Shown one piece after another: positions 10,031 to 56,230 of a DNA stretch of 64,000 nt. Source of the stretch: Eledone cirrhosa. Its lineage: Eukaryota. The stretch lies in NCBI GenBank assembly GCA_964016885.1, contig CAXHJY010001750.1, positions 62,001 to 126,000 of the forward strand. Direction: 5' to 3'. Position 1 is the stretch's first letter, and every line of letters begins with the position of its first letter. The notes below the pieces were generated by a model. The model was not told the DNA's origin and ran no database searches. It saw only the letters and a program-made list of their open reading frames with translations. Both the position numbers and the translations under genes were made by a program.

Positions 10031-10838
10031 GGACGGGGTGGTGTGGATGGGGTGGGGGGTGGTGGTGGTGGGGCGGGGTGTATTTTGTTAGAGATGCCTA
10101 CTGGCAAGGCGGGTCTTCTCTGTTACTGAGTACCGCCAAAGGTCTCGGTCCAGTGACATATATATATATATCTCTGTGTGTAGCTTATTACTATATATAT
10201 ATACACATACACACACACACACACACACACACGTACATATACACACACACACAGATGAAGCAACTATGCTGGAACTTTGATTCACTACCACTTTTCTACT
10301 TACAAATATATTTCTACACCCTTGCAAGCAGGGAAAAGTGGACGTAAAATGATGAAAGTGACTCTACTCTTATTTAGTGCTCAATCAGTTCATTTTGTAA
10401 TGTTTTAAATACTTCAGAACTTTAAACACATATTCTAGCATATAAACATAAACACATATACCTATATGCATAATATATATATATATATATCCATGCTAGC
10501 GTGGAAGATAGACGTTAAACGATGATGATGATAATATATATGGAAAAACACGCTTGAGAAAGATGATTATATATATATATACATATATACCATCATCATC
10601 GACCACTTTACGGTGGACATGACAACCTCACTTGCACCACAATAAAATGCACCCTGTACACTCTGTAAAGTGTGTTGTACTAATAATATATATACATACA
10701 TATATGTAGAGGTTATATTTAATTTGTTGGGATACAACAAGCAAAATATTTTTATAACTGATATAAAGCACTCAACAAATTATTGGAGTAAATATACAAT
10801 ATATTAACAAATGGAAACTATATTTATAAAACCATATT

Positions 10839-10904
10839 TATTTCATTATACATATTTCAAGGGCCACCAAAGCAGATTATGGTGCGCTTTCATCAGATAA
10901 AATA
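10839..10904 (-). ncRNA. Type I hammerhead ribozyme (intronic, sense to GRB2-like gene)
   Basis: UAUUUUAU-CUGAUGA-AAGCGCACCA..UGGUGGCCCUU-GAAA-UAUGUA-UA|AUGAAAUA: 8-bp stem I, near-palindromic minimal stem III. Confidence 0.78.
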
Positions 10905-11126
10905 TAATATAGATTAGTTTTTATATGTTTAGTACAGATTAAAGGTTAAAGCAATAAATTTGTGATTTCACACTAAGTGGGATCATCTGAAACTGGGAAA
11001 AATCAATCTGTAGATGCAGGGTGAAAGCAAAAATGTTTTACTTAAACTTTTAATCTGTACTAATAATAAACATTTGCTCTACAGGTTTATATATATATAT
11101 ATAATGTAATAAACAACACAATATAA

Positions 11127-11203
11127 TTATCCCATTACCTAAGGTTTCACAAAGTCAGACGATTCTAACAGAAACGTCTGATTTCGTTCATCAGATGAAA
11201 TAA
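11127..11203 (-). ncRNA. Type I hammerhead ribozyme (intronic, sense to GRB2-like gene)
   Basis: UUAUUUCAU-CUGAUGA-ACGAAAUCAGACG..CGUCUGACUUUGU-GAAA-CC(UUA)GG-UA|AUGGGAUAA: 9-bp stem I, about 12-bp stem II, short stem III, GUA cleavage triplet. Confidence 0.8.
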
Positions 11204-12162
11204 AATAAATAGCTCTGTACAAGAGATAGAGCACTCTTCTTTCCTTTACTTTTTCTATGGAAATACTTAACACACACACAAATATATATATATATATATA
11301 TCATCATCATTATATATATAATGTATGTCTCTCTATATATATATATATATATATAATTTCAAGTGCTACAATATAACATTCTAACCTTGCACGAACAAAC
11401 CAAAGATTTCAAAAAAGTTAATAATAATAATAATAAAAATAATGATAATAATGATAGAGCTAAGTAGGTATTCCAACATGCCACTGTTTATTTCGACACA
11501 CACACACACACACACACACACACACACACACACACACACACACACACACACACACACACACACACACACAGGCTGGCTATCAAAATCAAATGAGTCACCA
11601 ACTATGAAGTGATGGTCATTTGCTGGGTTTTAACTGGACACATGCACACACATGGACCGAGGCACTCACACGGATAGATAGACGCACAGACATACACAGA
11701 CATACAAATACGCACGGATACAGAAGAGTGGAGTTGGGCAAGCTTATAATTTCAAGGAACAAAATAGACATACTACAGCTATTAGAAAAGAGGGAAAGGT
11801 GGTGATGTGGTGATGTGGTGGTGGTAGTAGTGGTGTAGCCATTGCCATTGGTCAGTGGAAAGTGTTGCAATTATCACCTACTTGGAGGAACAACAACAAC
11901 AACAACAACACAGTGCAGCTCTTGTTTCAAAGCTCCACTATACCAGAGACACATACACACACACACACACACAAAACACACATCCTGCTCTACTTTACCT
12001 AGATATATATAATAGCATGTACTACTGCTGCTCACTCACTCACCCCTTATATATATTTACATGCATATATATACATATACGAGCGTGTACACACAAATAT
12101 ATACATACAAATATACACACACACACACACACACACACATATATATAACATTTATTTATATG

Positions 12163-12212
12163 ACACGCTGAATGAGTTGGGGTGATTAACCCAACGAAAC
12201 TTAAGTACCTGT
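12163..12212 (+). ncRNA. Degenerate hammerhead ribozyme
   Basis: CUGAAUGA (one extra A)-GUUGGG..CCCAAC-GAAA-CUUAAG-UA|CCUGU; perfect 6-bp stem II and palindromic stem III. Confidence 0.55.
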
Positions 12213-52595: not shown

Positions 52596-54843
52596 ATATA
52601 TATATATATATATAAAGTCTGTCTTAATCCAGAAGGCTCATTTGGGCGGTGCTTATCCCGGTTTCATGGCGTGAAGCGACTGAGAGTACAAGGCACCCCA
52701 CTGGACAGGAAACCAGTCCATTGCAGAGTTAATTAAACCCCCAGCTATTGCTGGTACTCATTTTCAGCTGAGTATACCGGAGTAACGTAAAATGAAGTGT
52801 TTTGCTCAAGAACACAACATGCAACCCAGGAATCGAACCCACGACATTATGATCGTAAGTCTAACACCCTTGCAATAATATATATATATATATATATATA
52901 TATATATATATATATATATATATGGCGCAAACATTTCATAATGCGTTCCACAGATTCCATCAATTTATCACCACTCGCTCCGTTGTTCTAAATAATTGTT
53001 TCTACGTTTGGCACAAGGCCAGCAATTACCCAGTGCATTACTGGTACTTTATTTTATCGACCCCGTAAGGATGAAAGGCAAAGTTAACCTCGGCGGGATT
53101 TGAACTCAGAATGGAAAGGGCTGTAACTCTTTGCGTCAAAGCATGGCGTCCGACCCTCTACTGATACTGCCAATCCACTGCCTTGTTCTAAATAATAACC
53201 ACGAACAAGATATCTATCTAACGCAGACCAAAATTCCACAAATCCTGGTATGGAGGTGCTTGGGGGTGGGCTGGGGCTGAGGGTAGTGGTGATTATTGAC
53301 CCCCGGGGTTAAATTTGTTACATATTATTATTATTATCAATCCGAGAACCAAAATTAGATAGAAAGAACTAGTATATGATTTGAACTAGGAACCGAGAGA
53401 AGGTTCGTTCAGTAGTAGGTCGAGTCGAGACTAGCAGAAATCGTTAAAAGGTTAAATAAATAAGGTAAAGGAAAGCAAATATATATATATGAGTTTATGT
53501 GTGTGTGTGTATGTGTGTGTGTATATAAATATATATATATGTATGTATTTGTGTTGGTCGTCGTCACTCCAAGACAGTAAGAACACTGAACAAGTGTTTC
53601 ATATAATGTTCGGTAAGAGAGTGACGGAGGAAAGGAGAGGAGGGGGGTAAAGTACGAGGCAGACAGTCAGTCGGTGTATATAGGCCTCTGTCTGTGTGTC
53701 TGTGTGTGTCTATGCTGCTTTACTAACCATACTTGCTGATAATGGTGAGTGATGATGACGATGATGATGATGATAAATAACGGTGCGGCTGATTGTCGTG
53801 GTGGTGGCGGCGGCGGCGGTAACGATGGTTGGCCTTTCTACCATCTATCTACCACACTACCAGTAAGTTTTAAAAACCACCAACAGAGCAAAGAACCAAT
53901 CTCTCTCTCTCTCACACAGAGACAGACAGAGAGAGAGATATATATATATACGTATATATATATATTGAAGAGAAGTAATTTCTAAAAGACTAATTCTATC
54001 CGATTCTGTGGTGAAATCACCAGATATGGAATGAAACTGCGCCAGTCCTGTAGGAGTCACTTCAATTCGAAATAAAATCCATTACCCTCCCTCACTTCAA
54101 ATGCTGTCTCCTGCCGTTCTTATATATACACTACGTGTGTTTGTGGATATCATCATCATCATCAAATATATATATATATATGGAGGAAAGGTTAGTTGTT
54201 ACCAGTATGACCGTTATTCAACTAAGTACTCAATACTTTAAAGTGTAGTGGAGAGGGCATTTATCACAAGACCATTTGAGCTGTCGAAACAGTTTAGGCT
54301 CCACTGTCAAAATCACATGCCATGAATAATGCATACACACATTATACAAGACTAAAACTGTTTCATTCGTATGAACTCCCCTGGAATGTCCATATATATA
54401 TATTGTACTACAATAAAACTCACCTCCTACATATATATATATATATATATATATATATATATATATATATATATATATATATATATGTAGGAGGTGAGTT
54501 TTATTGTAGTACAATAAAGCAATGCAGATATCGGATAAGAAGCACTCTACAGTTTGTAGGACTGGAGTATACATAATATATAAGAACAAAAGATGGTTAA
54601 AATACATGGAACTCTTTTAACCATCTTTTGTTCTTATATATATATATATATATATCATATCAATTTTGAATTGACCGCATGCGGTCTTTTTTACGAGTAT
54701 GTCACATTTTATACATCTAATATTGTATTTTGTCTGAATAAGGCATACTATAAATTAGTATCCTTGAAATATATATAACGAAATATATTATGATGCTATA
54801 GTGATATATTCCATTTATTACTATTATTATTTTATATATATAT

Positions 54844-55020
54844 ATAGGAACAAGTAAGACCCCGACGGCTGAGCTCAAGCCGTTTCGACGGCTAATTCTG
54901 GAGTCGAAACGGCTTGAGCTCAGCCGTCGGGGTCTTACTTGTTCCTATTACCCACTCTACTACCCTAAGTATTGAGTACTTTGGTGCGTTTTGGTCCACC
55001 TGGTTCCTTACCACATTTCC
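54844..55020 (+). mobile_element. Fold-back element with 3' half of a hammerhead
   Basis: Perfect 46-bp arms (54844-54889 / 54903-54948) with GUC-GAAA-CGGC..GCCG-UC; tail nearly identical to 52517-52590; (TA)n flanks. Confidence 0.75.
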
Positions 55021-55237
55021 TTATATATATATATATATATATATAAGTCCACCTGGTTCCTTACCACATTTCGTTATATATATATATATATATATATATA
55101 TATATATATATATATATATATATATATATATATAAGAGGTTAACGGGACTAGCATAAGGTCTCCCTGCTAGTATATGTGAGTGCGTGTGTGAGTATATAT
55201 ATATATATATATATATATATATAAACATTCCTTACTA

Positions 55238-55297
55238 TTCTTTCTGACGACTGAAGACATATAAATACCTGTCCTCAAGAAACCACTGGTAAATGAA
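55238..55297 (+). ncRNA. Hammerhead ribozyme, partly degenerate
   Basis: CUGACGA-CUGAAGACA..UGUCCUCAA-GAAA-CC(ACU)GG-UA|AAUGAA. The downstream tail (ataattat..tgttgtttattacat) matches that of the 11127-11203 element. Confidence 0.6.
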
Positions 55298-56230
55298 ATA
55301 ATTATCTAATGTTGTTTATTACATAACTATATATATATATATATATATATAGAGAGAGAGAGAGAGAGAGATTACAGGGTTGTGTCACGGGGCTAAGACA
55401 GTTTAAAAAAGGGTACTTAATACATTGGTAGAGTATAGGCACCTTTATTATATATCTCATCATCATCGATTAACGTCCATCTTCCACACTAGCAGGGGTT
55501 AGACGGGCCCTATTTTGAGGCAAGTTGTGTCGGGTGACCGTGTCTCATTCATATAGAGGTGTTATATAGGACTTCTACAGGACTAAAACTGTTTCATTCA
55601 TATGAAATCACCATGAATGTGTTATATATATATATATATATATATAGAAGTTATTCCCGGGTTCAATCAGGGCTAACCACAGTAAGTAAGGTACTCAATA
55701 CATAGCAGAGTATAAATATTTAATATAGAAAATGGCTTCTACAGGATTCCTGATGATTTTTCCCGAATGAAACAGTTCTAGTCCAATAGAAGCCATTTCT
55801 ATATTAAATATATATATATATATATATATATATACATACATGCAAAATATACAAGAGATCAAAGGCTAGAATGATTCGTTGCGTATACAGATAGACAGTG
55901 GTTCTACACACTACAAGTGTTGAGATATATATACAGAAACATCCACAGTGGAATGGTGGAATTGGAGGAAAGGCGTGTGGAGAGAAAGAGGAGAGGGTGT
56001 GTCTGCCGATAAGTTGAAATGTACTCCAACCTGGAAAGAAATATACATGTAAGAAAACACTGACACCACACACATACATTATTGTTGTTGTTGTTAAAGG
56101 AACACTTTGGACAAAGAATCCTTAAAGCAATATCTACATTCTTGTTTCCTTAAGTGTAGAGTACTATGCTGAATAATGGTTTTAACTAGTAACATCTCAT
56201 CTGGTAATATATGGATAGATCCAACTGTTA

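Follow-up and report, generated by a model that had tools for sequence, protein, structure and literature searches.

Short hammerhead-bearing elements in the Eledone cirrhosa genome as probable truncated 3' ends of Penelope-like retroelements

We analysed a 64,000-nucleotide stretch of the Eledone cirrhosa genome (assembly GCA_964016885.1, contig CAXHJY010001750.1, positions 62,001 to 126,000 of the forward strand; hereafter the window), which holds short elements with hammerhead ribozyme motifs in or beside (TA)n. Comparison with related loci across the assembly suggests, with good though not full confidence, that these are the 3' ends of at least six Penelope-like families, truncated on the 5' side and often joined head to head, and that they probably arose as run-off copies of RNAs started in the pseudo-long terminal repeat (pseudo-LTR). 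Judged by their motifs, five of these families appear to belong to the Hydra clade, and one more seems to be Neptune-like. A sequence-only reading of the same stretch had proposed a population of tiny, retrozyme-like ribozyme retroelements. That proposal is abandoned: each tested family is the 3' end of a longer element with reverse transcriptase (RT) or GIY-YIG endonuclease frames, and thus the short elements are not retrozymes.

The assembly spans 3.0 Gb, and a first look returned 697-2,656 candidates per family, which are not copy numbers; one exact family F word occurs 23,267 times and one family A word 773 times, with fold-backs counted twice. For families A to F, longer genomic copies place the same hammerhead and tail 3' of a Penelope-like RT or GIY-YIG frame on the same strand, as the proposed link to Penelope had anticipated. 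The family D hammerhead lies 1.0-1.3 kb downstream in 14 of 20 GIY-YIG loci, these loci being 98-99% alike. Family F shows a coding frame in 13 of 30 extended copies, several of which duplicate one another, and in 10 of 10 inverted pairs; its tandem pseudo-LTR-open reading frame (ORF) copies set the start codon 214 nt after the GAAA motif of the hammerhead. The family A hammerhead has a GIY-YIG frame 1.9 kb upstream at one locus (L033); 18 of 20 related GIY-YIG loci have the untranslated region (UTR) in common, and the hammerhead falls within the 1.5-kb flank in three of the 20. A GIY-YIG frame and UTR are common to two family E loci (L205, L206), with inverted copies at two others (L199, L209), and a decayed GIY-YIG frame stands 275-395 nt upstream of two family C copies (L089, L071). 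Family B is the oldest and has the weakest coding link: RT is joined to the tail at L228, and the tail lies just upstream of RT in 7 of 29 related loci and downstream of it in 3 of 20, where controls gave 2 of 145 per strand. The 3' UTRs of these families reach about 1.9 kb. On these comparisons, we consider it highly probable that the short elements are truncated ends of coding Penelope-like families.

In each family the 3' ends fall at either of two fixed positions separated by 45-90 nt, at about +70 and +157 relative to GAAA in A, +50 and +115 in B, +20 and +65 in D, +40 and +108 in E and +42 and +123 in F, and (TA)n lies beyond both. The association with (TA)n holds up well: 97 of 100 F arms carry (TA)3 at their 3' end, as do 40/46 A, 11/13 B, 8/14 D and 21/34 E arms, against a background of 10-14%. 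A hairpin closed by 4 bp (purine-CTC ... GAG-pyrimidine) stands behind the short 3' end, at roughly +46 to +90, in A, B, C, E and F, with a compensating pair in B; the pattern is absent in family D. Solo and inverted copies, and such 'tails', have already been described for Penelope elements generally. Head-to-head F pairs combine one short and one long tail in 22 of 24 cases. The F fold-back junctions are all distinct (38/38), which fits independent insertion events. A same-strand neighbour within 1 kb was found at only 5 of 150 A-E loci; the corresponding F count (11/60) was set aside, as the search word is near-palindromic. Because the F junctions differ and same-strand neighbours are few, nothing points to a short master element.

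The pairing of short and long tails fits the two internal priming sites and two-strand extension of PAc, a Poseidon-clade element of the green anole (Frangieh et al. 2024, PMC11167929). There the tail is delimited by the two priming sites, cleavage and extension take place on both DNA strands, targets are AT-rich and the test RNA spans the pseudo-LTR/ORF junction; in contrast to the families described here, PAc belongs to another clade and was studied in vitro only, and no run-off wall at the start site was found in the accessible parts of that paper.

The 5' ends of the short copies form sharp walls. Among 100 F arms, taken as the first exact matches on a single contig and thus sampled blind to length, 85 end 0-24 nt upstream of GAAA, one ends at 56 and 14 are long, with the mode at -18, the A of TCAGTC. 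The 14 arms of a '-22' class, which in part reflect chance matching with the inverted arm, were not counted as a wall of their own. An earlier share of long F copies, 367 of 23,267, was discarded in favour of the direct 14 of 100, as the longer word used for it misses a common variant. In family A, where the first 30 exact matches were likewise free of length bias, 24 arms are short, seven end at -119 to -121 and none ends between -122 and -229. In a biased sample of D arms, 21 of 39 stop at -106/-107, and no end falls in the interval -108 to -134. All three walls fall at pyrimidine-CA. The fly initiator reads TCAGTY, its A being +1, and pyrimidine-CA is the start-site dinucleotide in flies and humans (PMC1779564); the Penelope promoter is internal to the pseudo-LTR (PMC2377424). 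Initiator-like words occupy from 0.15% (TCAKTY) to 1.3-3.3% (looser forms) of positions here.

The -18 site of family F is not a general barrier: copies that include the ORF start pass it 24 of 25 times (some loci are duplicated), which argues against a simple fixed structural block. Since copies arriving from the ORF traverse the site, the stumps are likely to be run-off complementary DNAs (cDNAs) of pseudo-LTR-initiated RNAs, and their fixed 5' ends likely mark the RNA start in the pseudo-LTR. Run-off precisely at the RNA start site is, in our estimate, an even proposition. At a few loci (L342/L343, L409, L422), runs of 12-19 T/A stand at the F fold-back centre, directly at the -18 wall, and the long T runs at these junctions are possibly untemplated tailing at the template end. 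We also observed a few F copies that have their start or their fold at the cut site predicted for the hammerhead, +22/+23 (L112, L015, L364).

We propose the following route for these insertions. GIY-YIG would nick both strands of (TA)n, and each nicked end would prime reverse transcription at one of two internal sites, for which the anole element offers an in vitro precedent. With priming on the tail copy near the RNA 5' end, RT would have only 60-280 nt to copy before running off at the start site, and joining of the two cDNAs by microhomology would give a fold-back. Long and tandem copies may result from priming on the 3' copy, or from a template without a near 5' end (a read-through transcript or a hammerhead-cut circle). 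Taking this a step further, we tentatively suggest, at somewhat less than even likelihood, that the stumps, which number tens of thousands, record Penelope 'strong-stop' cDNAs, and that the F start site lies inside hammerhead loop II, so that F mRNA would begin with half a ribozyme.

Several points weigh against this account. The start-site reading is drawn from sequence only. Only one of the 25 ORF-start F copies begins at -18, and on that count the idea that all F RNAs start there was rejected; as the long F copies do not start at -18, a second class of template must be assumed. About three F arms begin near the hammerhead cut site. No clean 5' wall was found in B and E, family C gave a single unbiased copy, and the D wall is confounded by (TA)n microhomology and by the query starting there. 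The initiator matches are short and were spotted after the walls, and initiator usage may differ in molluscs. In most family B loci the coding link is statistical rather than continuous, and the family C frame is too decayed to score for clade motifs.

The strongest competitor, which we judge unlikely, keeps the same parents and has RT stall early at the folded hammerhead domain or at a low-complexity 3' UTR, with no role for a start site. The F wall does lie in hammerhead loop II, the A wall sits just upstream of a hairpin and the long stem I, low-complexity tracts occur in the 3' UTRs of A, B, D and E, and heavy 5' truncation is reported as general among Penelope elements (PMC8557442). Stalling fits poorly with the passage of the F site by copies coming from the ORF, and also with end distributions that are one-sided, with an empty zone past the wall, at three walls that all fall on pyrimidine-CA.

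Slightly less probable again is a non-coding class resembling short interspersed nuclear elements (SINEs), in which solo tails with their own internal promoter are transcribed and copied in trans by Hydra-clade proteins; this is what survives of the tiny-retroelement proposal. Short arms exceed long ones by about 4-6 to 1 (F 85/100, A 24/30), the A and D arms that start at the wall keep the whole hammerhead, and pseudo-LTR sequences suffice for mobilisation in trans in a rotifer (PMC3846280). Such a class would be expected to recopy existing fold-backs, which the 38 distinct F junctions speak against. Coeval ORF-bearing partners were found for F, D and A, and the anole RNA needed for copying includes 172 nt of ORF (PMC11167929), lacking in solo tails. 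Short pseudo-LTR transcripts may nonetheless be mobilised in trans, given the sharp 5' wall that the short copies have in common.

For the head-to-head palindromes, a published alternative invokes self-priming on antisense RNA (PMC3846280); this mechanism does not predict that each pair combines a short tail with a long one. Metazoan non-LTR retrozymes (PMC7229834), in which tandem 150-450 bp hammerhead repeats give circular RNA, resemble our elements in type-I hammerheads with palindromic stem III and in kinship to pseudo-LTRs, and retrozyme monomers are known in vertebrates (10.64898/2026.07.22.740005). That the short elements are retrozyme monomers is nevertheless very improbable: the window contains no hammerhead-bearing array and no hammerhead-to-hammerhead unit, same-strand neighbours are as rare as noted above, all six families join coding elements, the long copies reaching RT/GIY-YIG frames and so not being non-coding throughout, and most F copies hold half a core. 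The definition of a retrozyme calls for tandem units that all contain a complete hammerhead (PMC7229834; 10.64898/2026.07.22.740005), and with head-to-tail arrays absent our elements fall outside it.

All hammerhead sites named in the sequence-only reading were located in the window, and its claim of hammerhead motifs was borne out. A strict type-I descriptor (core, stems I-III and NUH), composed after the sites were known, matched six times in the window, which is 36.8% GC and (TA)n-rich, against 0.9±1.0 and 1.1±1.0 in two sets of 200 dinucleotide shuffles, none of which reached six in either set. Four of the matches are named sites (10847, 11136, 48390 and 49410) and the remaining two appear to be chance matches. 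The sites at 12163, 50127 and 55238 and both copies that had been called Penelope pLTRs (family H) do not pass the strict stem-I rule; the core is intact in relatives of 12163 and 50127 elsewhere in the genome. An Rfam scan of the window gave no hammerhead among the best 150 of 217 matches, which comprised microsatellite-driven microRNA only. We distinguish seven stem families, A-F and H, where at least five had been claimed. Stems of family A are 94% paired, and both sides have changed in 8 of 19 pairs against 4.2 after shuffling, with none of 500 shuffles as high (alignment A3: 10 non-redundant of 91 hammerheads plus two window copies). Family B is weaker, with 6 of 22 pairs against 6.3 (363/500) and 25 cells against 13.8 (alignment A2, from which 2 of 28 non-redundant hammerheads with internal deletions were omitted). 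Covariation, on which the sequence-only reading had staked its ribozymes, is thus clear in A and weak in B; such shuffles can be beaten by related sequences without structure, and the covariation is support for the hammerhead, short of proof.

The core is standard in families A, B, D and E. Family F has a U3-A8 variant in 24 of 35 copies, and family C carries a one-base insertion in 10 of 12 copies, fixed after A6, a change reported as low-activity (PMC3088659). The alternative of a long perfect stem II behind a standard core in family F was dropped, as that pattern matched 0 times. The half and degenerate copies noted earlier are present at their positions, those at 52475 and 54905 lacking specifically the 5' half of the core. 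Minimum-energy folds did not recover the hammerhead shape for most single copies, a common outcome with dimer-type motifs. The hammerheads would be expected to cut as monomers or dimers. The picture resembles that of the minimal hammerheads of Penelope pseudo-LTRs (Cervera and de la Pena 2014, PMC4209133), which likewise fall into numerous sequence families within one genome, occur mostly as single copies interpreted as truncated elements and also in close opposite-strand pairs, and have palindromic stem III and the U3-A8 variant; the main text of that paper names neither Octopus nor molluscs.

By motif comparison, families A, B, D, E and F match the Hydra clade of Penelope-like elements, described as having an RWK motif, DKT instead of DKG, a CxCX5C linker, (TA)n insertion and canonical hammerheads (Craig et al. 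2021, PMC8557442). Family F encodes RT followed by a C-terminal GIY-YIG, frameshifted in the copies examined, and family D retains open frames of up to 524 amino acids. In the RT region, compared in F and B, RWR and DKT occur in F and DKT in B. The CxCX5C linker is present in all five families and was not found in a decayed C copy (L076). Of the CxxC and CxH motifs flanking endonuclease E and N, both occur in A, D and F and CxxC only in B and E. Pfam gave a GIY-YIG match only below its cut-off (E 0.004) and did not recognise the F RT and GIY-YIG fragments. The GIY-YIG frames were first read as Neptune-type, an assignment that the published Hydra-clade motifs replaced (PMC8557442).

Our families share with the Hydra clade RW(K/R), DKT, the linker and the endonuclease CxxC/CxH, as well as the 3' hammerhead, (TA)n targets and truncated, tandem and inverted copies with a tail (PMC8557442). 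The clade includes Hydra-1_Obim from Octopus bimaculoides (PMC8557442 supplement), whose printed protein, compared by eye, resembles the F RT, whereas its printed hammerhead row, also compared by eye, is unlike A-F. Eledone cirrhosa adds at least five further families, with tails of 45-90 nt rather than 30-40 nt and the long 3' UTRs noted above; the accessible text of PMC8557442 makes no mention of fixed 5' walls for the clade.

Family H appears to be the tail of a broken Neptune-like element. The element itself (45105..48231, minus strand), 5'-truncated and frameshifted, encodes RT, a CX4CxxC linker and GIY-YIG, followed by a long 3' UTR and a minimal hammerhead at 45178-45202; a CX2-5CxxC linker before a C-terminal GIY-YIG is a Neptune feature. 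A second H tail lies at 49896..50061 (minus). Both copies taken for pLTRs are present; since they are only 78% alike, they are separate insertions and not matched ends of one element, and their stem I is weak, its pairing not supported.

Within the window, family A is represented by an arm with a whole type-I hammerhead and long tail, from -46 to +157, ending in (TA)n (10704..10904, minus), by an arm that starts at the family wall, -119, with whole hammerhead and long tail (48310..48581, plus) and its neighbouring inverted distal tail (48223..48302, minus), and by a diverged A-type arm (72%) with degenerate core (54684..54840, plus). A whole B hammerhead with short tail (11104..11202, minus) adjoins an inverted arm consisting of the distal tail only (11203..11272, plus), and a diverged B-type hammerhead and tail lies at 55238..55354 (plus). 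Family C contributes one arm with the core insertion and a short tail (12151..12238, plus), and family D one arm from its wall at -106 with whole hammerhead and long tail (49341..49499, plus). Family E comprises a 3' half overlooked in the sequence-only reading (16718..16766, minus), an arm with degenerate core (42481..42546, plus), a fold-back of two 3' halves (44896..44993, both strands), an arm with whole core and an internal deletion upstream (50108..50235, minus), a degenerate 3' half (54342..54389, minus), a degenerate arm (55572..55617, minus) and a fold-back with a long tail on minus and a core-bearing short arm on plus (55659..55816). Two family F fold-backs were found: 52415..52597, which holds only the 3' half of the hammerhead, with a short-tail arm on minus from -17 and a long-tail arm on plus, and 54844..55022, with a short arm from -16 on minus and a long arm from -3 on plus. 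An unplaced, rearranged hammerhead half (54183..54335, both strands) has an F-like tail word on the opposite strand, and no second copy of it was seen among the genome loci examined.

Stumps of different families are nested in each other's (TA)n ends at 48223-50235 and 54183-55816, and also at loci L060 and L228. A further family of two-armed (TA)n fold-backs, each with one short and one long tail, occurs at 13612-13935 and 43240-43420 and is frequent in the genome loci examined; no hammerhead core was found in its arms, and it probably consists of stumps of another Penelope family. Palindromes matching none of families A-H lie at 49272-49341, adjoining the 5' wall of the D copy, at 51976-52038, and at 54405-54512, with a (TA)n centre. 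The copies at 10700-12240 sit in the last intron of a GRB2/drk-like SH3-SH2-SH3 adaptor gene, whose minus-strand exons lie at about 16490, 15105, 14150 and 7790. Elsewhere we observed a degenerate (TA)n array of 1.3 kb (56233-57528), a 76-bp tandem repeat (58127-58759) and, across 2250-63400, many scattered 150-400 bp repeats of two or three SINE-like families.

The elements themselves belong to a known Penelope-like kind, and hammerhead-bearing Penelope stumps in (TA)n have been published; as an inventory the present set is ordinary, and its value is mechanistic. The outcome comes close to one that the sequence-only reading had named as fatal to its proposal, that all copies are truncated ends of catalogued elements, except that most families seem not to be individually catalogued. 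What looks new is the sharp 5' wall of the short copies: setting aside Repbase, Dfam, most subscription papers and bioRxiv supplements, no start-site wall in Penelope stumps was found in the literature. In genomes of this type, scans for the motif will mistake truncated Penelope ends for retrozymes or miniature inverted-repeat transposable elements. Pseudo-LTR regeneration and head-to-head insertion of Penelope elements are described as an open question in PMC2377424, PMC8557442 and PMC11167929, and the young family F, with more than 23,000 exact-word matches, two fixed ends for priming and a 5' wall resolved to the base, allows the RNA start to be predicted exactly. If the strong-stop reading is correct, the start site of each family could be read from its stumps, and cleavage of the half ribozyme at the beginning of the F transcript would require it to pair with the complete ribozyme at the opposite end of a full-length transcript.

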